A stretch of DNA of 64,000 nucleotides from Candidatus Omnitrophota bacterium (lineage in GTDB: Bacteria; Omnitrophota; Gorgyraeia; Pluralincolimonadales; Pluralincolimonadaceae): NCBI GenBank assembly GCA_028716565.1, contig JAQUPL010000001.1:211545-275544 (forward strand). The letters are read 5' to 3'. Made by a program: the position numbers and the translations under genes. Positions 1 through 61,516 of the stretch are shown here, in pieces; position 1 is the first letter of the stretch, and every line of letters starts with the position of its first letter. Below the pieces are notes generated by a model. That model was given only the letters and a program-made list of their open reading frames with translations. It did no database searches and was not told the DNA's origin.

Positions 1-225
1 GTAAGCTATGGCGCTGCCGAATATGAAACCCCTCGCCTCTATCGAGACGACTTTGTCTATCTTCTTTCCCTTATATCTTTCAACGAGGCAGTCAATCGCA
101 CCCTGGAATTTCCTGCCGTCTTTGAGGAGAGTGGTGATATCCTTGAATATTATACCCTTCTTCGGGAAGTCGGGTATATCGCGGATCGACTTTTTCAGTT
201 CTTCAACGATCTTGGGATCATTCAT
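1..225 (-). CDS. apt: adenine phosphoribosyltransferase, partial (N-terminal ~75 codons; gene runs off the window start)
   Basis: Minus-strand translation from the ATG at 225..223 gives [75 protein letters not shown], a type I PRTase / Apt N-terminus. The start overlaps the upstream sigma-factor stop as TAATG. Confidence 0.75.
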
Positions 226-1034
226 TATTGCATCTCCTGGGTCGTCATGTTCTTCCTGAGTTTCCTTAATGCCGCCTCTTCTATCTGCCTTACCCTCTCC
301 CGCGTTATCTTGAATTTGTCCGCCACCTCTTCGAGCGTATGCGGGGCGTCGTCTTTAAGGCCGAACCGCATGTTTAGGATCTCCTGCTCCCTCTTGTTCA
401 TCTTTTTGAAGAGGTCGGTGATCTTCTCTTGGCGGAGGAAGTTGGACATCTCATCGCTGGCTGAGGACGCCTTAGTGTCCTCGATAAGGTCCATCATCGT
501 CCCGCTGTCGTCCTCGCCTACCGGTGACTCGAGCGAAGTAGGCTGCGTCATTACGGTCTCGAGCTCCTGCGCCTTCCTTACGGGTATCTGCATCGACTTC
601 GCTATCTCGGCGGTCGTAGGTTTCCTTCCCAGTTTCTGGGAAAGCTTTTCGATGGTCTTCTTCCACCTCGACGTCAACTCCATCATGTAGACCGGGATCC
701 TGACCGTCTTTCCCTGGTTTGCGACCGCGCGGAGGATGTATTGTTTTATCCACCATGCGGCGTAAGTCGAGAAACGGAACCCCTTCTTGTGGTTGAATTT
801 TTTTACGGCCTTCATCAGGCCGAGGTTGCCTTCTTCTATAAGGTCCAGCAGCGGAACACCGAAGTAGCTGTATTTCTTGGCTATGCTGACGACAAGACGG
901 AGGTTCGATTGTATCATCCTCTTCTCCGCCTTGACGTCGCCTTTTTTAGCCAGTTTAGATAACTCTATCTCTTCTTCGGCGGTCAAAAGCGCTATCTTCT
1001 CTATATCCTTGAGATACGCCTTGATCGGTTCCAT
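225..1034 (-). CDS. RNA polymerase sigma factor, sigma-70 family (RpoD/RpoS-like, 269 aa, no region 1.1)
   Basis: Regions 2-4 are recognisable: [43 protein letters not shown] and C-terminal [29 protein letters not shown]. Confidence 0.85.

Positions 1035-21626: not shown

Positions 21627-21628
<2 letters not shown>
21598..21628 (-). other. stem-loop (9-10 bp stem, 12-nt loop) overlapping the groEL stop codon, between groEL and the second groES
   Basis: AGACCTTCC (21598-21606) pairs with GGAAAGGTCT (21619-21628). No U tract follows, so it is not a canonical terminator. The 62-bp gap also has a GGAGG SD for the downstream groES. Confidence 0.45.
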
Positions 21629-23264
<1,636 letters not shown>

Positions 23265-23635: not shown

Positions 23636-23662
23636 TTAGCACTCCATATTGGCGAGTGCCAA
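23636..23662 (-). promoter_or_regulatory. CIRCE element (HrcA operator) in the groES-groEL leader
   Basis: TTAGCACTC-CATATTGGC-GAGTGCCAA matches the CIRCE consensus TTAGCACTC-N9-GAGTGCTAA at 17 of 18 positions. Confidence 0.85.
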
Positions 23663-23673
23663 CTTTGTCATAT

Positions 23674-23701
23674 ATTATAGATTTTCTAGGGAATTTGTCA
23701 A
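23674..23701 (-). promoter_or_regulatory. sigma-70 promoter of the groES-groEL operon (-35 TTGACA, 16-nt spacer, -10 TATAAT)
   Basis: Minus-strand TTGACA at 23701..23696 and TATAAT at 23679..23674; CIRCE lies immediately downstream in the leader. Confidence 0.7.
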
Positions 23702-23719
23702 GAAAAAAATTATTTATCC

Positions 23720-23814: not shown

Positions 23815-24555
23815 GTTATATATCATATTTAATCCAAGCAAGGTAAGATTTGGATTTATCTTGTCAATTTCCGTAGAGTATTTTGCCATAAGAGCGGCGT
23901 GTCCGCCGGTGGCGATGACCTTCATAGGGCTGCCCCGCCCCGGAGCGATATGTTCATATTTTGCCTTTAGTTTCGCGATAACTCCGTCACAGAGGGCGCC
24001 GGTGCCGTGAAATACTCCGCTTTTCATGCTGTCGGCTGTGTCGCGGCCGATCAGGCCTTTTGGCGGCGTGAATTTTATCTTAGGAAGGAGCGCAGCTTTC
24101 TGCGAGAGGGCGTTAAGGGAAGTTTCGATCCCGGGGAATATCAGGCCGCCGAGGTACTCCCCTTTCTTTGAGATGACATCAAAAGTGATAGCCGTACCAA
24201 AATCGATGACTATAGCGGGACAACCATAGAGCTCTTTTACGGCCACCGCGTCAACGAGCCTATCCTGCCCAACCTGACCCGGTTTGCGGTAAAGGTTCTT
24301 TATAGGCGCCTTGATGTTCTCTCCCAGGACTAGCGGGCGGATCTTATATTTTTTCTCTATTGCTTTCTTGATAATAGGGGTTGCTTTGGGCACGACGCTC
24401 GATAATATCGCCGTCTTGATACCCTTCGGAAGTTTTATCGTTTTTTTGGATAAGACGCCCTGCGTAGGGATCTTCCAGGATGACCTGAGCCTCTTCCTCC
24501 GGAATACCCCGAATGCGACGGATGTATTTCCTATGTCGATAGCTAATAGCATCAT
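23779..24555 (-). CDS. coaX: type III pantothenate kinase
   Basis: 258 aa; [19 protein letters not shown]-terminus (ASKHA fold), GGLIFPG, and a C-terminal ...LGLNMIYN region. The final LEFNVSRRAGL* tail is encoded by the repeat element. Confidence 0.9.
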   Translation of the reverse strand: MMLLAIDIGNTSVAFGVFRRKRLRSSWKIPTQGVLSKKTIKLPKGIKTAILSSVVPKATPIIKKAIEKKYKIRPLVLGENIKAPIKNLYRKPGQVGQDRLVDAVAVKELYGCPAIVIDFGTAITFDVISKKGEYLGGLIFPGIETSLNALSQKAALLPKIKFTPPKGLIGRDTADSMKSGVFHGTGALCDGVIAKLKAKYEHIAPGRGSPMKVIATGGHAALMAKYSTEIDKINPNLTLLGLNMIYNLEFNVSRRAGL

Positions 24556-25511
24556 CTCACCATCAGCACATCACCGGCGGTGATGTGCTCCGTGAACCCG
24601 TTGTCCATGCGCACGACTAGCGCTCCTCCCGCGTCAAGGTCTACGGCTGTGCCTTCTATCTTCCTGTCCTGGCAGACGATCTTTACCTCTTCGCCGAGGG
24701 TGTGCGAGAGGTCTTTCCACTCCTCTATTATTCTTTTAAAACCCTTTTCCCTGAAAATAAGATATTGCCTCTCGAATTCCCTTAAGACTTCACGCGTAAG
24801 TTCCACGCGCGAAAAATTCCTGCCTGCTTCCGCTTTCAGCGAAGTGGCTTCCCCGGGAAGGTGGTCTTTGTCGGTATTCACATTTATGCCGATGCCGAGG
24901 ACTATATAGTTGACAGTGTTGACCTCGGCGCTCATCTCCGTGAGTATCCCGCAGGCCTTGCGGTCGTTTATCATTATATCATTCGGCCATTTGATCAGGG
25001 CCCCGAGGTGTGTCACTTTCCTTATGGCGAGCGCGACGGCGACCGCAGACATAAGGGTTATTTTCGGCGCTTCCGCCGGCGCGACATCCGGCCTCAGGAT
25101 AGGCGAAAAATATATGCCCTTCCCTTTCGGCGAAACCCAATGCCGTCCCATCCTGCCGCGGCCCTTCGTCTGGCTTTCGCTGAAGACCACCGTCCCGTCA
25201 GGCGATCCGGATAGGGCGAGCTTATGCGCCACATCCATCGTCGAATCGGTCGTCTCGTAGGAGTATATCTTCTTGCCGATTATCTTTGTCCCGAGGCCGT
25301 GGGATATCTCTTCCGGGATGAGTTTATCCGGGGTGCCTGTAAGGCGATATCCCACATGCGGCTCGCCCGTTATCTCATACCCCTCTTTGCGCAGCTGTTC
25401 GATGTGCTTCCATACCGCGGCGCGCGTGATCTTCAGTTTTTCACTTATCTCTTCGCCGGAGATGAACTCGCCGTTCGAGGAGCGGAAGATATTTAAAATT
25501 TTATCATCCAT
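24552..25511 (-). CDS. birA: bifunctional biotin--[acetyl-CoA-carboxylase] ligase / biotin operon repressor
   Basis: 319 aa; N-terminal wHTH ([31 protein letters not shown]), BPL catalytic domain (GRGRMGRHW), and a C-terminal SH3-like domain. Overlaps coaX by 4 bp. Confidence 0.92.
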
Positions 25512-51263: not shown

Positions 51264-51578
51264 CTACTTTGATTTGAGGTTTTTGTCGAGGATCTCTATC
51301 CGCGAATCGGCCTTTTTCTTGTGCTGCAGCGCGAGGCGTTCTTCTATAACAAGGTCAAGCTGTTCTTTCAGCGTATTAGGAGTGATCTTTAATGAAGGAT
51401 TTTCACTGATGCGCAGCGCGAGAGCCATCTTCAGGTCTTTATTGGTAATAGGCTCGCCGTTGACCGTCGCTATGACTTTTTCGACCGGCTGGACGGCAGC
51501 CGGTTTTTCAGCCGGCCTGCCGCAGCCTAACAATAAGAAAGTAGCTAAAAGTAAGAGTATTTTTTTCATTAAATTCAT
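51264..51578 (-). CDS. small lipoprotein with a SurA N-terminal-like chaperone domain
   Basis: 104 aa; lipobox LLGC. VIATVNGEPITNKDLKMALALRI...LKEQLDLVIEERLALQ resembles the SurA_N / PpiD N-terminal helical chaperone module (compare the SurA motif pattern AAVVNNGVVL..L...IMERLIMDQIILQ). Start overlaps the stop of the giant gene by 4 bp. Confidence 0.6.
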   Translation of the reverse strand: MNLMKKILLLLATFLLLGCGRPAEKPAAVQPVEKVIATVNGEPITNKDLKMALALRISENPSLKITPNTLKEQLDLVIEERLALQHKKKADSRIEILDKNLKSK

Positions 51579-54500
51579 GGTGTTAAAACTCCGGCTACCA
51601 CTTCATCAAGTATATACGAGGTTCCATCGTAAGTTATTGAACCGGCGGCTTGACCTGTGGCCGTTGAGCCATTTATCTGACCAAGGATATCTGCAGTATA
51701 TGTGGTTTCAGTTATGTTGGTATATGTATGGTTGAGATAATCGGAAAGGTTAGAAATAGTATCTATCTCTCCTATGACAGGAAGTGCCGACCGAATTAGC
51801 TGACCATAACCGACAAATATTCCAGTATCATATACGCTTAAATCAATACTGCCAGCAATCAAGTTGGCATTTCCGGATACGTCGGTAAGTAATGCGGTAT
51901 AGGTTTCGGTTATCGGGACCTGGACCATATCGGCTAACGCGACTTGGTCAAAACCTAGCGCGCTTGTCGCGATCTCGGCCAAGTCTACCCAATCGCCCTC
52001 CACTTTGGCGTTCCAGGTCGTATCTACATTAGTAATGTCGGAGATGGTGCCGTCTACCATGCCTACCCATAACGTATCTTCTCCCTCCGTGTGCATCCCG
52101 AAAGAAACGCCGTGGAAACCATTTGAGCTCGCGGTCCCAAGTAAATATCCATCGACCACGCCGTCATCATAAGACTTGATGCCTAATGCCAGCCGCCAGT
52201 TTGAATTCTCCTCTATATTTCCTGTGCCTGCCAGCATACCACTGTATGTACCCGTATCAGGCATGCCTTCGGGGATCCCCAGGTTTGTAACCGCTTCTCC
52301 TCCGAACAGGCCGGCCATAAGGACGCCGTTAATATTGCCCCATCCGCTCCCTGCGACATCGATCTCGTTTGTTATTATATGTTCCTCTTTCAGATCGATT
52401 ATCTGTTCATATCTTCCGATGGCGAGCGCCTCCCATCCATCGGTGTCATTATATACGCCGGCGATATTTCCGGATATCTCGCCTAACCTGGTGCCGTAGA
52501 GAGTGACGCCGTTCATCGTCGCCAGGAATCCGTTGTCCGTCCATTCCGACCCTGATATCACAGCGACCCAGGGGCTGCGCCCGTAGATCCTGTCGCCTTC
52601 ACCGGCCAAGACCGAATTCCACGCGCCGGTTGGCAGAGACGCGTAGGCACCGCCCGCCGACGCGCGCCACAGACCCCAGTTTTGGTCACGAAGCTGAATA
52701 TGTTCGCCGCTGACAAAGCCGCTGACGTTGCCGTTTATAACGGCGTCTAAATCGCCGTATTCAAATACTACGTCTATATCATCATTCATCACGTCCATTA
52801 AAAAGAGCTCAGGCGATATATCAGTCTGCTGGCCGGGATAAGCGGTCATATTTCCGTAAGCGTCAAACATGCTTATCGACGGATAGAAAGCGCCGTTGAC
52901 GTAGGCGGGATTACCTGTCCCGTCGGAAGATAACACATACCCGGCGAGATAATCGTCATCGCCGTCGGCGTCAAGATCGCCGGCATTACGGACATAAATG
53001 GCTGCCAGCATGCCTTTAAGCGAGTTATTTAATGTTGTGCCTCCCACAGAACCGTATAGCACAGAGTTCCCGTTGGTGACCGCAACAAAATCCGAACCCC
53101 AGAGATTGTAGTAACCCGCGCCGTCTTCATTGATATCCGGATTATCGTAATTGCCGAGTATCGTGAACTCCGGCGAATTATCCCAGAGCACCCCAGTACT
53201 GCCTAGGACGCCGTTGACATATCCGTAATCGAGCATATCGTAATCGCCGAAATATCCGTCGATCATCATTCCGCCGGTCACAAGCGGTTTCTCCACCCAC
53301 CCGCCTATAGCCGAAAGGGCGAACGTCGAATACCCCTCGCGGTCGTTATATATGCCGCGGGCGTCTCCGAATATCGTCGACATCACGTTTCTTTCAAGGT
53401 CTATGGCGGTGCCGAATACGTCGCCCACTATCTTGTTACCGGAAACGCTGCTGTTCGAGATAGTGACGAGCTCATAATAGTTGTAGTAAGGTTCGTCACC
53501 GTCGTAATAGCCAAGCACAACCGCGCCTTCTTTTGCGTTCCCTTCATACCACGGTTCTCCCCATTCTCCGGCGAGGGTGATGTTGAACAGGCCCCACGGG
53601 TTATTCGCGATATAGTATGAACTTTCGCTCGCTGAGCCATAAACTAAATTAATGCCGTCGAACGATCCTCCGACCATATATTCCGCGTGATAGCCGTCTT
53701 CGGCAAATCTTTCGAAGAGGTCTTCAGGAGAGACTACGGTGCCGCCCATCGCCTGCCGGTATAGCGCGCCTTCAGCCTGCCACATCTCTATTTCATCGTT
53801 GTACCTTCCGTTGATATCGCCGTGAAGCAGGCCGACAGCCCCGTTCGCCGCATAAATGGCCCACATGCTGCCGTCGGACATTGATCCGTCCTTCCAGATG
53901 CCGGCGGAGAAGCCTTTAAAAGCGCCGCCGTCGAGAGTAGTCGAATTATCCAGTTCGGCATTATAGCTTTCTATGGGAGTGTTCCACAACAACGGGTTTT
54001 CTTCCGCGTAATTGTAGAATTTACCCATCGCCAATACCGGGAATGAAGCCTCATTCCACCACTGCTCGACTGTCGAGCCGATCAACCCCCATTCCTCGCC
54101 CGCTTTATCTATATAGCCGTAATTGTCATAGTATAAGCTGCGGACCTCATAACCCCACAGGCCGCTTAGGGTAAGCCGTCCGCCGTTCCAGACACCGGCA
54201 CCGACTCCCAGCCAGTCGCCCTCGCCTTCCCCTTCATATATTCCGAGTATCTTGCCGTCAATATTGCCCATCTTTGTATAGGTGATGAATTTCCCGTGCA
54301 GTTCGGCATCCACATCTTCTATGTAGTCGGATACCTCATCCCACGTCCCGGTCAAATCGGCCATCCAGTATCCGTAATCGTCGTTGAGGTAACCTTCACC
54401 TTCTCCGTCTCCATATTTAAAATAATAGGCGCCGAACGGATCATCCCCGCCCATAACGCCGGACCACGTAGTTTCGGATCCGGGGTCATCGTTTTCAAAC

Positions 54501-57376
54501 CAGCCGGTGATCGTCTGCCCGTAGACGCCCCAGTTCTGCGCTATTCCGCGTTCGTGATCGACTATCGATAATGTCCGGAAGTCATCTTGACCGTATATGT
54601 ATCCGCCCGTCGTTAAGGTGCCGGAAAGATAACCGTACCCTTCGGTATTCCATATGGGGAGCTCTTCCGCGGGGATGCCCAATTCCCCGGCCGAGACCAT
54701 TTGGGTCTTTGTCATCTCTCCCTGCAGGAGGTACATCCCGATATCCGTCGAATACGCGCCCTTCAGGTCGCCTGACATCACTCCGGCATTGCCGGCCGGG
54801 TCTATATACAACAGCCTCGCAAGTCCGAGTAATTTTGCATCCTGTCCGTCGCCGGCTGTGAAGCCGAAAAACGCGCCGCCGTCATATGTAGTATATGGTC
54901 TGGTTTCATCGCGCGGATTATCGCTGCCCATATTCTCAAACCAGATAAACGGTTCGTAAAATTCTCCCTCATAGCCTTCGCCGTACTCAGGGTTGACGTC
55001 CGGTTCCACGTACCCTATGGAAGTGACATTGAAGGATCCCGCGCCCCAGAGGTCTCCGGTAGTGCCGAATAATCCGCGGAAATCGCCGTCATGGAAGTAA
55101 TCGCCGTAATTATAAGTATATAAACATATGTCAAAGTCTCCGCTGGAGGTCAGGGGTTCTTCTCTGAAGCCGCCCAGCCCTATCCCTTCGAAACCTTCTC
55201 CCTCAATGTTGCCCAGTATCGTACCGTAGTATGTACCTAACTTATCGTAATCAAGGTAGGTTCTGAGTATGTCTATTCTTACGGCGCCCGAGCCATCGTC
55301 AACGCCCTCAAGCGAGACGAAAAATCTTCCGCCGGCATCACCGTAGTACCCGCCTGCCGCTCCGAGCCAATTATTCAGGTTATGCGAGTTAGAATATCCG
55401 CCGTTATATACGTCTCTCCATATACCCCAGTTCTCTCCGGCGATCGTTTTTATGTCCTCGTCGAAGACGACGTCGAACTGACCGCTGCCATTACCGAAAT
55501 AGGCGTTCAACCAGCCGTTGCCGGTACCGTCCTCCCACCCGTATTCCTTGCCGGGCTCAAGCTGGGCCATGGGTATTGTATAGAGGTCCCCGGTGCCGCT
55601 CAAAGTGCCTGCCCCGGCTAGCGAGACGCTATTCGTACCGGAAAAATATCCGAAAAGGTTACCCGCTAAACCGGAAGGATCTATATATATAGAAGATACA
55701 ACGCCTTCCCAACTGTGCCAGCTTCCTCCGGCCCAGCCCGTAAAAGCTCCGCCGTCTGTGCTGGTGCCGTACACTTCTCCGTGCCAGAGGCTGTAGCCGG
55801 GATTTTCATATGAACCGGCAGCGTTAGTGGAGAAGATCCCTGACCATGGGACGGCAAGGGCTGTCGTGTTTGAAAGGTCTATCTCGATACTATTAGGACC
55901 TTCTAGCCCCTCATCGGGCCCGAAAGCGCCTTCGATCCTTCCTGAAAGATAAACGGGTAAAGTCGCAGAGCCGCCGCCTTCGCCGCCGGTCGTACCGCCG
56001 CCCACTCCCGTATTGTCGGTAAATATCTTGTCGCTGAAAGGATTCTGGTTCCAGTTGGTGTCGGGGTTATCACCTGTACCTCCTCCAGTACCTTCAGAAT
56101 ATCCCTCAGGGGCGGAATAACCTTCAGCCCCTCCTTCGACATCCCATCCCTGGTTCCATTGTGAACGTTGCTCATCGGTGACATGGATCGGGTTCGATAC
56201 ATTACCGTTCCCGTCGGCGCCGGATGAGGTTCCAGCTGCCACATTTTGGATGATTCCGGATATCATGCTTTTCAAGACACCGTTACCGTCTTCGAAATAT
56301 GCGCTTGTAAGATTAGGCAGGATGTTAAGGAAAAGGATCGTGCCGCGGACGGAAGCGACGGCTGTCGGGGTCTTGACTTCAAATTTGGAATTGCCTTTAA
56401 GTTTCTCTACTTTGGCGCGGAGTTTGCCCTTCTTCGACTCAAAGAGGCTCTCATGCTCTCCGCTCCCGGTCTCCTTGAGGCGTGTTATAGTGAAATTCGA
56501 GTCCTGTTGTAAAGTGATGACATCACCGTTCTCGACCCTGAATTCCACTTTTCCGTTCTTGTTCGTCTCTATTGTATCGCCGCCTCTGAGGGTCTCGTTC
56601 ACTTTAGCGTCGTGCCATACGGCCGAGCCGCCGTTCTTGACTTTAACGCTTCCGGAGAGTTTGACGATGACCGCCTTCATCTCGCCGGGTTCGCTGTAAC
56701 CCTCGGCCGCCGCGGATTCCCCGGCAGGGGCTTTCGCTATCAGAGTATCTTTTTCGTGCGCGGTTCTCTCCATGGCAAGGATCGTCCTGGGAGAGGTAGG
56801 CCCGCTGTCCGCGAGTATTACCGATGACTCCCCGCTCTTTATCTCGACCTTCTTTTCGGGAGCGGCGGAGCTTGAGAATGACAAGCTGCCGTTCAGGACC
56901 GTCGCCGAGGTCGCCGATTTCTGGTAGGCCACTACGACATCGGTCCCTTTTATGCTTCCGGAGGCGTTAGGGGTATTGATGAGGAAATTATCTTTGCCCG
57001 GAGCTTTGGAGACAACCGCTCTTATCTTCCCGCGTTCTATGTTCAAAACGGCCGCTATACGTTTTCCGTCGAGGCCTACCCTGTAATCCTTGATCTCAAG
57101 CCTGGTTTTTTCCGAGAGGGTGACGACAGACTTGTCAGAGAACGTTAACTCCGCCTTAGAGATGCTCTTCGTTCTCAGGATGTCTCCCGCAGATACATCC
57201 TCTCCGCCTTTTACCGGCACCGCTTCGGTCCTACCCGGGCTAAGCAGGTCTACATTACCCTCGGCGGCGGATACCCTGCCTATCACTTCGGCGCTCGCCG
57301 TGACGGCGAAAGCAAGGGACGCCGCGGTAAGTATAAATACTCCCGCCGTTAATAGTTTTGCGGTCCGGCTTTTCAT
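51575..57376 (-). CDS. giant secreted protein (1933 aa): signal peptide, two tandem FecR domains, ~1500 aa repetitive Gly/Tyr/Asp/Asn/Trp-rich region
   Basis: SPI signal peptide (..LAFAVTASA) with no lipobox. FecR domain 1 (GDILRTKSISKAELTFSDKSVVTLSEKTRLEI...FLINTPNASGSIKGTDVVV) and domain 2 (GDTIETNKNGKVEFRVENGDVITLQQDSNFTI...FEVKTPTAVASVRGTILFL). The remainder has almost no Lys or Arg and shows a recurring motif h-x-G-[DN]-h-x-G-x-Y-[NS]-[DT] (LHGDINGRYNDE, MSGDLKGAYSTD, FGDARGIYNDRE, SGNIAGVYNDTD). Confidence 0.85.
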   Translation of the reverse strand: MKSRTAKLLTAGVFILTAASLAFAVTASAEVIGRVSAAEGNVDLLSPGRTEAVPVKGGEDVSAGDILRTKSISKAELTFSDKSVVTLSEKTRLEIKDYRVGLDGKRIAAVLNIERGKIRAVVSKAPGKDNFLINTPNASGSIKGTDVVVAYQKSATSATVLNGSLSFSSSAAPEKKVEIKSGESSVILADSGPTSPRTILAMERTAHEKDTLIAKAPAGESAAAEGYSEPGEMKAVIVKLSGSVKVKNGGSAVWHDAKVNETLRGGDTIETNKNGKVEFRVENGDVITLQQDSNFTITRLKETGSGEHESLFESKKGKLRAKVEKLKGNSKFEVKTPTAVASVRGTILFLNILPNLTSAYFEDGNGVLKSMISGIIQNVAAGTSSGADGNGNVSNPIHVTDEQRSQWNQGWDVEGGAEGYSAPEGYSEGTGGGTGDNPDTNWNQNPFSDKIFTDNTGVGGGTTGGEGGGSATLPVYLSGRIEGAFGPDEGLEGPNSIEIDLSNTTALAVPWSGIFSTNAAGSYENPGYSLWHGEVYGTSTDGGAFTGWAGGSWHSWEGVVSSIYIDPSGLAGNLFGYFSGTNSVSLAGAGTLSGTGDLYTIPMAQLEPGKEYGWEDGTGNGWLNAYFGNGSGQFDVVFDEDIKTIAGENWGIWRDVYNGGYSNSHNLNNWLGAAGGYYGDAGGRFFVSLEGVDDGSGAVRIDILRTYLDYDKLGTYYGTILGNIEGEGFEGIGLGGFREEPLTSSGDFDICLYTYNYGDYFHDGDFRGLFGTTGDLWGAGSFNVTSIGYVEPDVNPEYGEGYEGEFYEPFIWFENMGSDNPRDETRPYTTYDGGAFFGFTAGDGQDAKLLGLARLLYIDPAGNAGVMSGDLKGAYSTDIGMYLLQGEMTKTQMVSAGELGIPAEELPIWNTEGYGYLSGTLTTGGYIYGQDDFRTLSIVDHERGIAQNWGVYGQTITGWFENDDPGSETTWSGVMGGDDPFGAYYFKYGDGEGEGYLNDDYGYWMADLTGTWDEVSDYIEDVDAELHGKFITYTKMGNIDGKILGIYEGEGEGDWLGVGAGVWNGGRLTLSGLWGYEVRSLYYDNYGYIDKAGEEWGLIGSTVEQWWNEASFPVLAMGKFYNYAEENPLLWNTPIESYNAELDNSTTLDGGAFKGFSAGIWKDGSMSDGSMWAIYAANGAVGLLHGDINGRYNDEIEMWQAEGALYRQAMGGTVVSPEDLFERFAEDGYHAEYMVGGSFDGINLVYGSASESSYYIANNPWGLFNITLAGEWGEPWYEGNAKEGAVVLGYYDGDEPYYNYYELVTISNSSVSGNKIVGDVFGTAIDLERNVMSTIFGDARGIYNDREGYSTFALSAIGGWVEKPLVTGGMMIDGYFGDYDMLDYGYVNGVLGSTGVLWDNSPEFTILGNYDNPDINEDGAGYYNLWGSDFVAVTNGNSVLYGSVGGTTLNNSLKGMLAAIYVRNAGDLDADGDDDYLAGYVLSSDGTGNPAYVNGAFYPSISMFDAYGNMTAYPGQQTDISPELFLMDVMNDDIDVVFEYGDLDAVINGNVSGFVSGEHIQLRDQNWGLWRASAGGAYASLPTGAWNSVLAGEGDRIYGRSPWVAVISGSEWTDNGFLATMNGVTLYGTRLGEISGNIAGVYNDTDGWEALAIGRYEQIIDLKEEHIITNEIDVAGSGWGNINGVLMAGLFGGEAVTNLGIPEGMPDTGTYSGMLAGTGNIEENSNWRLALGIKSYDDGVVDGYLLGTASSNGFHGVSFGMHTEGEDTLWVGMVDGTISDITNVDTTWNAKVEGDWVDLAEIATSALGFDQVALADMVQVPITETYTALLTDVSGNANLIAGSIDLSVYDTGIFVGYGQLIRSALPVIGEIDTISNLSDYLNHTYTNITETTYTADILGQINGSTATGQAAGSITYDGTSYILDEVVAGVLTP

Positions 57377-57394
57377 CTTACATATCTCCTCATT

Positions 57395-58897
57395 TTAGAA
57401 TTTGTATTGTATCCCTAAACCGTAAATGCTTCTGTCGTAATCGTAGACCGCTATATTCGAATGGTCCTTCACGTAGGTGTACCTGAACTGCAGCTCCGCT
57501 TCCTTCCAGAAGTTATACGCGAGCATGGAAGAGACCGTATAGACCTGGTCATCCCGCTTTTTCCCGAATATTGTGTTCGTATCGGCGAAGTCCTGGAGGA
57601 AAGCGTCGCCTGCGATGCTTAGCTTAAATTTTTTAAAGAAAGGATAGAGGATCGTCGCGGTGAACCTGTTGCCGAGATAGTTCCAGTTCACGCCTTGTGT
57701 ATATTCCCTATTCAGCCCGTAATGGAGCCCGAAGAAACCTTTATTCTCCGCGAAGAAGAAAAAGTAACCCAGGCCACCGCCGAAATCATTCGAGTTCCTG
57801 TTCTCGTCGGGTATGAAGGGGTCGCGGGCAAAAGCCTTCTTCTGATACTTAAAATTAGCCTGAAGCATGTGCCTTCCGCCGATTATGTAATTGACAACGG
57901 GGCTGGCGCTGACCGTCGTCATATATTTGGTCCTTCCTACATCGGTATAGTTATATCCCGCGGCGATGCCCAAAGTCCCATTCTTGAAATAATAATTCGG
58001 CGTTACCACGACGGTCTGGCTCAGGACATCGTAAATGCCGAGGTCATTCTGGTGCGCGAAGTACAGGGAATACTGGCCGTCGAGTCCCAGCTTATCATTT
58101 AACTTCAGCCTGCCCTGGCCCATGAAGTTCACGACTTCCCTCCAGTCAGCCTCATCGCTGATGCCGGTCGCGACAGTATCGTCGCCGGGCTTAAGCAGGA
58201 CGTTCGTGTCGTATTCCCCTCCGATGCTGACAGTCGCCCTTAGGGGCCTCTCAGCCTCCTCTTTTCTCTTAAGGGCCTCCATATATTCGCTGGAAAATGA
58301 CGCGAGGTCGGAGTTGGGGTCGAGGATTATTATCTCGTGAAATACCTTTTTAGCCTCGGCGAACCTCTTCTCCTTTAGGTGCGCGATGCCTATCTGGTAA
58401 TCGGCGGCCCGGGCGAGCGTCGGGTCGATAGCTTTTGCGTTCTCGAAGGCTGTTATCGAGTCCATATTTTCGCCGGCCTTCAAGAGCACAAGGCCTTTCA
58501 GGAAAGCTGTCTGCGAGGGCTTGATATTTTCCTTTTCCGCCGTCGCTATATAAGACTTCGCCTCGTTTGTCTCTCCCAGTTGATAGAGCACTTCAACAAG
58601 CTCGACAAGCGCTTCCTTGATCTTCGGCGTAAGCGTAACCGCGTCGGTTAACTGTTCTTTCGCGAGCTTATAGTCCTGCAGCTGCTTATAAGTTATACCG
58701 AGGTAATAGGCGGCCAGGCACGAATTCGGGTCCTCCTGCCTTGCCTTCTTAAGGAGAACGACCGCTTCATCGAAGTTCTCTCTTTTATACTGACTCATGC
58801 CTTGCTCAAGAGACGTATCAGCGGTTGCGGTATTGAAGATAAAAAAAGAAGATATAAAGACGGAAAATATCATTACCAGGAGGGCTTTTTGCGGCAT
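57395..58897 (-). CDS. outer-membrane protein: N-terminal periplasmic TPR domain + C-terminal beta-barrel (Slam / type 11 secretion-like architecture)
   Basis: 500 aa with a signal peptide. It has 4-5 TPR-like repeats (residues ~30-200), then ~14 amphipathic beta-strands ending in a C-terminal aromatic (..GLGIQYKF). Size and layout match Slam (DUF560) translocons. It is 18 bp upstream of the giant gene. Confidence 0.6.
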   Translation of the reverse strand: MPQKALLVMIFSVFISSFFIFNTATADTSLEQGMSQYKRENFDEAVVLLKKARQEDPNSCLAAYYLGITYKQLQDYKLAKEQLTDAVTLTPKIKEALVELVEVLYQLGETNEAKSYIATAEKENIKPSQTAFLKGLVLLKAGENMDSITAFENAKAIDPTLARAADYQIGIAHLKEKRFAEAKKVFHEIIILDPNSDLASFSSEYMEALKRKEEAERPLRATVSIGGEYDTNVLLKPGDDTVATGISDEADWREVVNFMGQGRLKLNDKLGLDGQYSLYFAHQNDLGIYDVLSQTVVVTPNYYFKNGTLGIAAGYNYTDVGRTKYMTTVSASPVVNYIIGGRHMLQANFKYQKKAFARDPFIPDENRNSNDFGGGLGYFFFFAENKGFFGLHYGLNREYTQGVNWNYLGNRFTATILYPFFKKFKLSIAGDAFLQDFADTNTIFGKKRDDQVYTVSSMLAYNFWKEAELQFRYTYVKDHSNIAVYDYDRSIYGLGIQYKF

Positions 58898-58969
58898 TTA
58901 TGCTCTTCCTTTTGTTTTACTAGATTTGTTTTTAAAGATATAATACGAAGTATGCCGTAAGATGAAATA

Positions 58970-58998
58970 ACTCTATCATTTCCTTATAATTATGTCAA
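58970..58998 (-). promoter_or_regulatory. putative sigma-70 promoter of the OMP / giant / lipoprotein operon (-35 TTGACA, 17-nt spacer, -10 TAGAGT)
   Basis: Minus-strand TTGACA at 58998..58993 (inside the palindrome) and a weak -10 TAGAGT at 58975..58970. Confidence 0.4.
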
Positions 58999-59016
58999 GA
59001 TAAATATCTTGACATA
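58991..59016. promoter_or_regulatory. perfect 12-2-12 palindrome (candidate operator) in the divergent intergenic region
   Basis: TATGTCAAGATA-AA-TATCTTGACATA. Each arm contains TTGACA, serving as the -35 for the + strand (59009-59014) and the - strand (58998..58993) promoters. Confidence 0.7.
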
Positions 59017-59037
59017 AGGCGCCAAATCGCATATTAT
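59009..59037 (+). promoter_or_regulatory. sigma-70 promoter of the PEP-CTERM protein gene (-35 TTGACA, 17-nt spacer, -10 TATTAT)
   Basis: TTGACA at 59009-59014, a 17-nt spacer, and TATTAT at 59032-59037, 45 nt upstream of the ATG at 59083. Confidence 0.6.
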
Positions 59038-59082
59038 ACTACAAGCGACCAAAATCTAACCGTTGAATCCAAGGGGCTTTAT

Positions 59083-59598
59083 ATGAAAAAACTATCCATT
59101 ATTTTGCTGGTGGTAGCTTTTCTCTCCGTTGCTCACTCTGCATTTCCCGATACTTTCGATACTTTACAGGGTATTGTTTTTTATCCATTTTCCACCGCAG
59201 AACATTATACAGAGATCCATAATTTCGATCTTGGGCAAACCCCCTATCTATATTTAGAGCTTCCGTCGGGAAATTACGGTTTTTATACGTCCTCTATTGA
59301 AACTAACTGGTATCACGGTGACTCAGATGAAGGCGGCTATACTGCATTAGGTATAGAACGACTTGTCTACAATAATAATCCGACCCCGACCTTATCCCGG
59401 GACTGGAGCAACCCGTCTAATATCGGCACCTGGTATATCTCTGCGAATTGCACTATTGTTGGTACTTCGTATTTAACCGGACAAGCCAACACCTGGTTCA
59501 CAATCAGCGACCCGAATGCTGTCCCGGAACCCGTCAGCACTATCCTGTTTTTGGCAGGCGGGGCGACACTCGCGGTAAGACGCCTGCGTAAAAAGTAA
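59083..59598 (+). CDS. PEP-CTERM sorting-signal protein (putative exosortase substrate), secreted
   Basis: 171 aa; N-terminal signal peptide and a C-terminal VPEPVSTILFLAGGATLAVRRLRKK (PEP motif, TM helix, basic tail). The gene is visibly lower-GC than its surroundings and is the only plus-strand gene in the window. Confidence 0.8.
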   Translation: MKKLSIILLVVAFLSVAHSAFPDTFDTLQGIVFYPFSTAEHYTEIHNFDLGQTPYLYLELPSGNYGFYTSSIETNWYHGDSDEGGYTALGIERLVYNNNPTPTLSRDWSNPSNIGTWYISANCTIVGTSYLTGQANTWFTISDPNAVPEPVSTILFLAGGATLAVRRLRKK

Positions 59599-59605
59599 TT
59601 CCCTT

Positions 59606-61516
59606 CTATTCTATTTTCAATATAATCACCGTCATGTCGTCGTGTTGGGGCGTGCCTTGGCTGAATTTCTCGACTTCCCCTACCAGCTTATCGGCCAGGC
59701 CCTGGGCCGAAAGCCGCCTGTTCAATAATGCCGTATCGAGTATTTGTTTCTCGCCGAATTCTCTCTTGTTCTTGTCCCTCGCCTCTGATATGCCGTCCGT
59801 ATACATCACGAATACGTCTCCCGGTGAAACATCGAACTCATCGGCCGTAAACTCCGAGCCGGGGATTATACCTATGGGGCTTCCGACCGATTGCGTCAGC
59901 GCCACCACGTCCCCGGAATCTTTCACCCAGACGAGCGGGTTATGGCCGCCGTTCGAATATTTTATCTTCCTCTCCTTGGGTTTGTAGATGAGGTACTGGA
60001 GGGTGACGAACATCCCGGAGACCCCTTCTTCAACGAGCCTGTCATTTATCGCGGTAAGGGCTTCATCCGGTTCGTTGAAGTCATGGGAAAGACCGCGGAA
60101 ATCCGCCATCGCCTTCGCCATGAACAGGGCTGCCGGGACGCCTTTGCCTGAGACATCTCCGATGACGATCCCCAGCCTGTCTTCCTTCAATTTGACGACA
60201 TCGTAAAACAATTTTATGAAATCGTAAAAATCCCCTCCGACATGTTTTGCCGGAACGAACTTGACCCCTAATTCGACGCCTTTAGTCCCCGGAAGGTTTT
60301 GGGGCAATAGCGACTGCTGTATCCGGCTTGCTATCTGGAGCTCTTTTTCTATAAGGCCCTTCTCGAACCTCGTTATAATGAACTGGTTAAGTGTCACGGC
60401 AGGATACGCGACGCACAGCAATATCAGTATGCTTACATAATCCAACCATATATTAAAAAAAGAAAATGAAATATACGATATAGCCGATATTCCTGCTGCC
60501 AGGACCGCGAAAAAAGCCAGACCCTCGAACGGGGTCCTTTTCGGGAGAGTAAGACCGATGGCTGAGCCGATAATAAGGAGTATAAGTAATATTCCCGGCC
60601 TGTATACCCGATCGATGAAATCCTTTTTAAGGATCGTGTTAATCGCGCTTGCCCTTATGCCTACGCCCGGGTATAAGCTGGACATCGGAGTAGACCAAAA
60701 GTCCTCGCTTCCGGTCGCGGTCAACCCTATGATGACGATCTTGTCCTTCAGCATCTTAAGGTCTATGGCAGGTTTTTCGCCGTCCTGCGCCTGTACGCCG
60801 GCCAATGCCACGGCCGCGTAAGATGCCCTTTTAAATTTGGCGTATTCTCCGGGATAATTTATCCACATCATCCTGTTCGCGTCAGTCCTGACATTGAGTT
60901 TCTCGGGTGTTGTGCCTAAAAAATGCGCGGCCACGAGCGCGTCCAAGGATAAGTATTTTTTTCCTTCATGGGTGAGCTCTACCGGAACCTTCCTGACTTT
61001 CCCGTCCGGCTCTACTAGGATGTTCACGAAACCTACGCCTTTGGCGTTCCGCTGCAGTTCCGGCAACGGCAGGGTAATATCCCTGGGCTTGATGATGTTC
61101 TTCCTCATGTCGTCCTGGCCGAGGTCGAAAAAAGCCGAATAGAATATGTTGCCGGTTATCTTGGTCTGTTTAGATAGTTTTATGTCTTCCTCTGGCTTAT
61201 CCTCCTCCGGTTCGCTGAAGATGATATCGAAGACTATGGTCTTGGGGCCGTAATCATCTATGATATCCAGCAATTCTGCGTGATATCCCCTGTCCCACGG
61301 CCACCTGCCGAAGGCCTTAAGGGCCGCGTCGTCTATCTCTATGATGACTATATCGGGACTTGCCGGCCGCGGGCCGCGCATCTTGAAAAGTAAGTCAAGC
61401 CCCTGGTATTCAGCGAGCTCAAGGATGCCTGTCAGGTAGGCAAAGCCTATGACCGCCGCGCAAATTAGCCCTATTAAAAGCCCGCTTTTCTTTTTCATTC
61501 TATTATTATCTCGCAT
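59606..61516 (-). CDS. CHASE2 sensor domain-containing PP2C/SpoIIE-family serine phosphatase
   Basis: 636 aa; TM helix, periplasmic CHASE2-like region (..IVIIEIDDAALKAFGRWPWDRGYHAELL..), three TM helices, then a PP2C domain (GDVSGKGVPAALFMA...MYTDGISEARD). Confidence 0.75.
   Translation of the reverse strand: MRDNNRMKKKSGLLIGLICAAVIGFAYLTGILELAEYQGLDLLFKMRGPRPASPDIVIIEIDDAALKAFGRWPWDRGYHAELLDIIDDYGPKTIVFDIIFSEPEEDKPEEDIKLSKQTKITGNIFYSAFFDLGQDDMRKNIIKPRDITLPLPELQRNAKGVGFVNILVEPDGKVRKVPVELTHEGKKYLSLDALVAAHFLGTTPEKLNVRTDANRMMWINYPGEYAKFKRASYAAVALAGVQAQDGEKPAIDLKMLKDKIVIIGLTATGSEDFWSTPMSSLYPGVGIRASAINTILKKDFIDRVYRPGILLILLIIGSAIGLTLPKRTPFEGLAFFAVLAAGISAISYISFSFFNIWLDYVSILILLCVAYPAVTLNQFIITRFEKGLIEKELQIASRIQQSLLPQNLPGTKGVELGVKFVPAKHVGGDFYDFIKLFYDVVKLKEDRLGIVIGDVSGKGVPAALFMAKAMADFRGLSHDFNEPDEALTAINDRLVEEGVSGMFVTLQYLIYKPKERKIKYSNGGHNPLVWVKDSGDVVALTQSVGSPIGIIPGSEFTADEFDVSPGDVFVMYTDGISEARDKNKREFGEKQILDTALLNRRLSAQGLADKLVGEVEKFSQGTPQHDDMTVIILKIE

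Follow-up and report, generated by a model that had tools for sequence, protein, structure and literature searches.

Is the long, perfect palindrome between two divergently transcribed gene units of this Omnitrophota bacterium the binding site of a dedicated regulator, or can the promoters on its two sides account for it by themselves? We addressed this question in a stretch of 64,000 nucleotides (64 kb; hereafter the window), in which the first-pass annotation had described a 12-2-12 inverted repeat, TATGTCAAGATA-AA-TATCTTGACATA, at 58991-59016, had interpreted its arms as the -35 boxes of divergent promoters, and had proposed that a dimeric regulator encoded elsewhere co-regulates the units on both sides. 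The repeat is exact as described and gains one further pair on extension, so that the full element is a perfect 13-2-13 repeat, TTATGTCAAGATA-AA-TATCTTGACATAA, at window positions 58990-59017; as a pattern, the dyad can be written TGTCAAGATA-N2-TATCTTGACA. The gene context given in that annotation, an OMP/giant/lipoprotein operon facing away from a PEP-CTERM gene, was also correct, with genes and domains as follows:

51264..51578, minus strand: lipoprotein, 104 aa, lipobox LLLGC; 4-nt overlap with the stop codon of the giant gene
51575..57376, minus strand: FecR-domain giant protein, 1933 aa
57395..58897, minus strand: TPR and C-terminal beta-barrel outer membrane protein (OMP), 500 aa, first gene of the operon
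59083..59598, plus strand: secreted protein, 171 aa, with signal peptide and PEP-CTERM sorting tail (TIGR02595, 20.8 bits, cutoff 16)

The palindrome and its genomic setting

The dyad lies inside the 185-bp intergenic region 58898-59082 (31% G+C), and no other perfect inverted repeat of the 64 kb whose loop measures at most 8 nt is as long; when the whole window was subjected to dinucleotide shuffling, arms of 13 nt were reached in one of 60 shuffles. Its 22-nt core, searched with up to 3 mismatches, has a single match in the window and none in 100 shuffles. Folded as single-stranded DNA, the dyad yields -9.9 kcal/mol (z = -6.4). A 1406-bp contig from a separate assembly (L080; Logan SRR22315509) is 100% identical across the region, and the palindrome is therefore no artefact of the assembly of the window. 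The second-longest perfect palindrome of the window is a G+C-rich 12-1-12 repeat, AGCACATCACCG-G-CGGTGATGTGCT, at 24565-24589, which falls within the last codons of a birA-like gene (minus strand, 24552-25511), with the coaX start (24555) 10 nt downstream.

Together with the related loci, window positions 51264-61516 define a conserved Omnitrophota envelope module that consists of a CHASE2 sensor fused to a PP2C/SpoIIE phosphatase, the TPR and beta-barrel OMP, and the FecR-domain giant, with lengths between about 840 and more than 2300 aa; only in the window and probably in L079 does the module include a small gene of about 100 aa. The module is flanked by housekeeping genes (DinG/YoaA-type helicase, trpBA), and the loci around eight OMP homologues share the order trpF, PilZ, HtpX, DinG/YoaA-type helicase, CHASE2-PP2C (SpoIIE), TPR-OMP, FecR-domain giant, in which CHASE2-PP2C is a sensor phosphatase. 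Where present, the PEP-CTERM gene is located between the CHASE2-PP2C and OMP genes on the opposite strand, as an accessory insertion within an otherwise co-directional CHASE2-PP2C/TPR-OMP/FecR-giant array (59083-61516 in the window). It converges on the CHASE2-PP2C gene, with at most 7 nt between the stop codons (7 nt in the window, an overlap in L006). A terminator scan found no terminator between the two genes in the window, and antisense read-through and transcriptional interference between them are conceivable. Almost all OMP homologues with a source name are labelled Candidatus Omnitrophota or Omnitrophica. An exact-protein look-up returned no record for the OMP and, for the PEP-CTERM protein, only a 1.4-kb contig of 100% identity; the latter protein is 35% identical to a 175-aa homologue at the same position in L002, which carries the same C-terminal VPEP...LFL.GGA tail. 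A FecR-domain protein adjoining a CHASE2 sensor also occurs in the 'BiofilmReg' operon of Burkholderia (PMC5192318).

Promoter elements in the arms

Each arm of the palindrome contains an exact TTGACA hexamer, on opposite strands, and each hexamer is followed at 17 nt by a -10-like element:

58970..58978, minus strand: extended -10 element TG-a-TAGAGT of the OMP promoter, 17 nt from its -35 box (TG at 58978-58977, one base before TAGAGT at 58975-58970)
58993..58998, minus strand: -35 box TTGACA of the OMP/giant/lipoprotein operon promoter, in the left arm
58999..59008, no strand: A+T-rich 10-nt spacer between the -35 boxes, GATAAATATC, at about -36 to -45 of each promoter
59009..59014, plus strand: -35 box TTGACA of the PEP-CTERM promoter, in the right arm
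59032..59037, plus strand: -10 box TATTAT of the PEP-CTERM promoter, 17 nt from its -35 box
59071-59076, plus strand: Shine-Dalgarno sequence AAGGGG of the PEP-CTERM gene

Scored against the sigma-70 consensus, which may not be that of the Omnitrophota themselves, the plus-strand TTGACA-17-TATTAT matches at 11 of 12 positions and the minus-strand TTGACA-17-TAGAGT at 10 of 12, with the TG of an extended -10 in addition. The hexamer positions and the 17-nt spacers had been placed correctly on both strands by the first-pass annotation; the TG is an addition to it. The pair has the makings of divergent promoters, with spacing in the range of 16-18 nt on each strand and each promoter upstream of an outward-transcribed gene. 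Since both promoters are near consensus, they are predicted to be active without an activator. Their -35 centres are 16 bp apart, so that the A+T-rich 10 bp fall in the UP-proximal zone of both promoters and may play an UP-like role; the -10 boxes are separated by about 57 bp and the predicted transcription starts by about 81 bp. Between the end of the -10 box and the ATG lie 45 nt on the PEP-CTERM side and 72 nt on the OMP side, and transcription is predicted to start near 59043-59045 for the PEP-CTERM gene (leader of about 40 nt) and near 58963 for the OMP operon (leader of about 66 nt). Further consensus promoters of the same form are found elsewhere in the window, for example one with a 12/12 match upstream of the groEL region.

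Conservation across orthologous loci

The OMP upstream region was compared among nine lineages (the window, L001, L002, L003-5, L006-8, L009, L075/76, L078, and L077/L079), in which OMP identity spans 85% down to 60% among the relatives and the intergenic DNA is otherwise diverged. The lineages are listed below with OMP identity, presence of the small PEP-CTERM-type gene and the sequence upstream of the OMP gene in OMP orientation:

Window: 100%; gene present; TGTCAA-GATATTTATC-TTGACA-17-TAGAGT
L002: 81%; gene present; TGTCAA-GCATTATTTTC-TTGACT-17-TAAACT
L003-5: 71%; gene present; TGTCAA-CAAATATTTAC-TTGACA-17-TATATT (L003)
L006-8: 70%; gene present; TGTCAA-GTTATTTTACC-TTGACA-17-TATACT (L006)
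L001: 85%; gene absent; TGGTAA-GAAATTATTC-TTGACA-17-TATACT
L009: 71%; gene absent; only TTGACA-17-TATATT
L075/76: 68%; gene absent; only TTGACA-17-TACAAT (L075)
L078: 62%; gene absent; only TTGACA-17-TATCCT
L079: a different divergent gene of 425 aa; TGTCAA...36 nt...TTGACA (the same divergent gene and the same TGTCAA on the L077 contig)

A uniform promoter scan recovered the OMP promoter, TTGACA-17-(TG)nTAnnnT, in all nine lineages, the left-arm -35 box being kept in 9/9 and the extended TG in 8/9. With the same scan, the PEP-side promoter was found in all four gene-carrying lineages: L002, L003 and L006 keep the exact TTGACA, followed at 16-18 nt by TATCAT, TATAAT or TACTAT in place of the TATTAT of the window. 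Exact TGTCAA at 10-11 nt from the OMP -35 box occurs only in the four lineages with a divergent PEP-CTERM-type gene of 171-175 aa, whereas the second -35 box is decayed (TGGTAA) or missing in 4/4 lineages without a divergent gene; in L009, L075/76 and L078, which have no second arm, the OMP -35 box starts 5-11 nt after the CHASE2-PP2C stop codon. The co-occurrence of the second arm with the divergent gene (4/4 versus 0/4) is suggestive; because the lineages are few and phylogenetically related, these counts do not amount to a strong statistic. In a five-way alignment (A1), the invariant blocks are TGTCAA, CTTGAC, TG-TA-A-TT (TGnTAnnnT being invariant) and a block in the OMP leader, and the remainder has diverged. 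The spacer between the -35 boxes is A+T-rich in the relatives too, with a length of 10 or 11 nt and no conserved sequence. The hexamer-to-hexamer distance is 11 nt in L002, L003 and L006 compared to 10 nt in the window, so that no dyad geometry is conserved.

The closest relative, L001, which has no PEP-CTERM gene, is recognisably homologous right through the dyad region. At L001 2258-2305, 3' of CHASE2-PP2C, a stem-loop, GGCCTGCTAAGAATAGGCC, followed by TTTT, resembles by eye a canonical intrinsic terminator and abuts a decayed remnant of the left arm, TGGTAAGAA. This arrangement suggests that the PEP-CTERM gene of L001 was lost by deletion, with a terminator created or retained at the junction.

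Back-to-back promoters as the probable source of the palindrome

Taken together, these comparisons lead us to propose, with a probability of roughly 0.7, that the palindrome consists of the -35 boxes of two divergent sigma-70-type promoters placed back to back, without a separate operator. The assignment of the arms to -35 boxes, already made in the first-pass annotation, is borne out by the canonical spacing and by conservation across the orthologous loci: arm conservation follows the -35/-10 pattern, and the second arm is confined to loci that offer it a gene to drive, which indicates that the arms are promoter elements. Under the proposed mechanism, the right arm, tc-TTGACA-t, together with TATTAT 17 nt downstream, would drive the small PEP-CTERM gene rightwards, and the left arm, an extended -35 element on the minus strand, together with TG-n-TAGAGT 17 nt downstream, would drive the TPR-OMP/FecR-giant/lipoprotein operon leftwards. 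Two RNA polymerase holoenzymes would thus initiate in opposite directions, near 59044 on the plus strand and near 58963 on the minus strand, and no binding protein beyond the holoenzyme would be necessary for the dyad, whose symmetry would arise because near-identical consensus extended -35 elements face apart across an A+T-rich spacer. Conceivably, on general grounds, the two promoters could be coupled through upstream contacts of the alpha subunit or through transcription-induced negative supercoiling. The feature is, in these terms, an ordinary one, one more case of divergent promoters set back to back, in which a perfect palindrome happens to result.

How much of the symmetry do promoters explain? 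Beyond the hexamers, the dyad contains seven further complementary pairs, for which intergenic base composition gives a probability of about 1.6e-4. The sequences flanking TTGACA are not random, however: promoter-like sites with this hexamer prefer T at -4, C at -1, T at +1 and A at +2, as estimated from 17 sites in the window and related loci that are non-independent, partly orthologous and inclusive of the window's own. The extended consensus tcTTGACAt is known from Escherichia coli, and the preference in the region agrees with it. With the flank frequencies of the 17 sites, agreement of two promoters across the seven flank positions has a probability of about 0.002; the estimate is rough, given the small number of sites, their partial orthology and the inclusion of the window's own. 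The flank preference accounts partly for the extra symmetric bases; promoters do not fully explain the perfect symmetry of the seven pairs, and the chance value, which is low though not extreme, leaves some room for a lineage-specific additional function. At the same time, the dyad was picked for its symmetry, so that a chance event at the 0.2-1% level is unsurprising.

Does the palindrome also serve as an operator?

The principal rival is the proposal that the 13-2-13 dyad is, in addition, the operator of an unlinked dimeric transcription factor that, when bound, would occlude both -35 boxes and co-repress both units. Several properties of the locus speak for it. The perfect dyad over 26-28 bp, the longest short-loop repeat in the 64 kb, exceeds what the hexamers require, with the conditional chance of the seven extra pairs given above, and half-sites such as GTCAAGAT and ATCTTGAC, whose centres are separated by about 11 bp, could accommodate a helix-turn-helix dimer. 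Moreover, genuine palindromic operators do occur at consensus promoters in this genome. An example is the CIRCE element, the operator of HrcA, at 23636-23662 (TTAGCACTC-N9-GAGTGCCAA, one mismatch), which serves as a positive control for operator recognition. It lies just downstream of a 12/12 promoter, TTGACA-16-TATAAT (about 23672-23705), in a 517-bp gap upstream of groEL (21627-23261, minus strand) that probably also holds groES.

The comparative evidence nevertheless makes an operator unlikely. The symmetric bases beyond the hexamers, namely the inner GATA/TATC (ATA/TAT beyond CTTGACA) and the outer TTA/TAA, vary among L001, L002, L003 and L006 and are conserved in no orthologous locus, and the half-site spacing changes in three relatives, as described above. 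Furthermore, four lineages keep the OMP promoter without a second half-site, and the OMP operon thus needs none.

The search for further copies that was to define a regulon also came out negative in the 64-kb window, where no other copy of the core exists even at 3 mismatches and half-site matches are at the chance level. The 12-nt arm, with up to 2 mismatches, has 6 matches against 3.2 expected, and two of these are the arms themselves; one intergenic match, TTTCTTGACAAA (23694-23705), corresponds to the -35 region of the promoter on the groEL side, and the remaining three are inside genes and lack TTGACA. In public data, matches are scattered, and none was recognised as related. The pattern TGTCAAGAT-N4-ATCTTGACA has 14 matches in scattered taxa among 185,579 species genomes, with roughly 9 expected by chance; no contig among the 14 bears an Omnitrophota title (one title gives no phylum), and the only one compared with the window by BLAST, L021 ("uncultured bacterium"), showed no similarity. 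The same pattern in metagenome contigs returned 50 stretches, mostly from one coding site of a gut bacterium, none with BLAST similarity to the window. A 1.4-kb metagenome contig (L051, Ga0180430_10174614) carries an identical 22-nt core, TGTCAAGATATTTATCTTGACA, at 1275-1296, within wholly different flanks.

No candidate for the binding protein emerges from the gene neighborhoods either. The first-pass annotation had noted that no regulator gene is adjacent, and we found no gene for a DNA-binding regulator in the conserved neighborhood; just two helix-turn-helix proteins, BirA and a sigma factor, were found in the window, encoded at distances of 34-58 kb. Known BirA sites lie upstream of biotin genes and have TGT(A/T)AAC arms separated by 14-16 nt. 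As judged informally, neither spacing nor targets fit the BirA encoded at 24552-25511, and resemblance to a Fur box or to the LysR motif T-N11-A is poor by eye. The sigma-70-family protein (269 aa, window 225-1034, minus strand) has regions 1.2, 2, 3 and 4, and its size is that of an alternative, group-3-like sigma factor; it might in principle act as an output of a PP2C partner-switching pathway of the kind that CHASE2-PP2C suggests. On balance, co-regulation of the two units by a dimeric regulator, as put forward in the first-pass annotation, finds no support, given that the extra symmetry, the spacing and the second arm are all not conserved.

A narrower variant would restrict the extra function to the lineage of the window, with the -35 pair sharpened into a perfect 28-bp dyad that acts as the operator of an unlinked dimeric repressor or as a site of RNA polymerase competition. 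We regard such a lineage-specific switch as distinctly unlikely; if real, it would couple an accessory PEP-CTERM surface protein to the CHASE2-PP2C/TPR-OMP/FecR-giant/lipoprotein module.

Hairpin and scar interpretations

It is very improbable that the dyad acts as a nucleic-acid hairpin, either as an RNA stem-loop that stops or pauses CHASE2-PP2C read-through across the antisense PEP-CTERM gene or as a DNA cruciform. The computed DNA fold is strong, and the convergence of the two genes at 7 nt, with no terminator-like site found, makes read-through into the dyad region conceivable; in L001, moreover, the terminator-like stem-loop occupies a neighboring position. Yet the stem is A+U-rich, with a loop of 2-4 nt, and is followed by UUAUAAGG instead of a U-tract. 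It is also not maintained in relatives, where no compensatory pattern is seen and the hexamers alone persist while the spacer length changes, and the dyad is upstream of both predicted start sites. An intrinsic terminator at the dyad was among the rejected elements: the terminator scan did not call it, and the A+T-rich stem leads into TTATAAGG with no T-run. No Rfam family was identified: the best scores, 15.3 and 12.8 bits, are far below the respective gathering thresholds of 60 and 50.

That recombination or a mobile element left the dyad as a scar, for example at a site of insertion or excision tied to gain or loss of the PEP-CTERM gene, is scarcely credible even though this gene is present or absent among close relatives and the junction of L001 with window sequence is only about 8-10 nt from the dyad, given that the sole other intergenic 2-mismatch match to an arm is the -35 region of the groEL-side promoter, that no integrase or transposase is nearby, that on either side the position of the arms is exactly what functional promoter spacing requires, and that L001 retains remnants of both arms, so that the dyad itself is not the deletion boundary.

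Comparison with known systems

Beck and Warren, in 1988, reportedly provided the classical classification of divergent bacterial promoters, which is said to include a back-to-back class. The locus resembles sigma-70 promoters of that class in having two core promoters on opposite strands, with adjoining -35 boxes, shared upstream regions and a transcription unit of its own for each. It differs from the usual members in that both -35 boxes are exact consensus, are 10 bp apart and have matching flanks, which together yield the perfect 13-2-13 repeat, and in that the promoters are predicted from sequence.

The symmetric bidirectional promoters of the Grainger laboratory have a shared pseudo-symmetric -10 region at which binding of one polymerase excludes the other (PMC10268837, PMC12825309). 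Both cases derive divergent transcription from symmetry of the DNA sequence in promoter elements; unlike those promoters, in which the -10 element is symmetric, the symmetric element here is the -35 pair, with the -10 boxes far apart.

A region with a PrsR/sigma-54 arrangement has been described upstream of proteobacterial PEP-CTERM genes, in Proteobacteria only (Haft et al., 2006; PMC1569441); it comprises a 17-nt motif ending in TTTACA, an interval of about 63 nt and then, at a distance of about 71 nt from the start codon, a sigma-54 site of the -24/-12 type. The two cases share a conserved DNA element upstream of a single-gene PEP-CTERM unit. The layout in the window, by contrast, is of the sigma-70 type with -35 and -10 boxes: no GG-N10-GC core is present on either strand of 58898-59082, the nearest look-alike, GGCGCCAAATCGC, having N9 and no conservation in relatives, and with only 68 nt between the dyad and the ATG the layout of PrsR motif 1 does not fit. 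We therefore rejected a sigma-54/PrsR model.

With CIRCE/HrcA operators, the dyad shares perfect or near-perfect symmetry at a promoter. Both the sequence and the spacing of CIRCE are conserved across phyla, and its regulator is known, whereas at the dyad only the promoter hexamers are conserved and the spacing changes among relatives.

A conserved block in the OMP leader

Promoters aside, the best-conserved sequence of the intergenic region lies outside the palindrome, in the 5' leader of the OMP gene:

58921..58951, minus strand: leader block ACTTC-N8-TCTTTAAAAAC-AA(C/T)CTA

Within this block, TCTTTAAAAA does not vary, and in six lineages with otherwise diverged intergenic DNA the CTTTAAAAA core begins 35-43 nt ahead of the ATG; in the relatives, the block is found near position 2377 of L001, 5961 of L002, 5962 of L003, 5960 of L006 and 2963 of L078. 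No consensus RNA structure was predicted for the conserved OMP leader, and the window contains no further exact copy of TCTTTAAAAAC. The block may bind a protein, be targeted by an sRNA or enhance translation.

Implications

To our knowledge, the Omnitrophota are a phylum without experimental promoter data. The present comparison offers a phylogenetically supported sigma-70-type consensus for these uncultured bacteria, tcTTGACAta-N-TGnTAnnnT. It also provides a caution for the automated prediction of operators and regulons, in that promoters alone can explain dyad symmetry at divergent promoters. The palindrome itself carries little weight, and the conserved envelope module and the leader block of its OMP gene are more likely to reward study.
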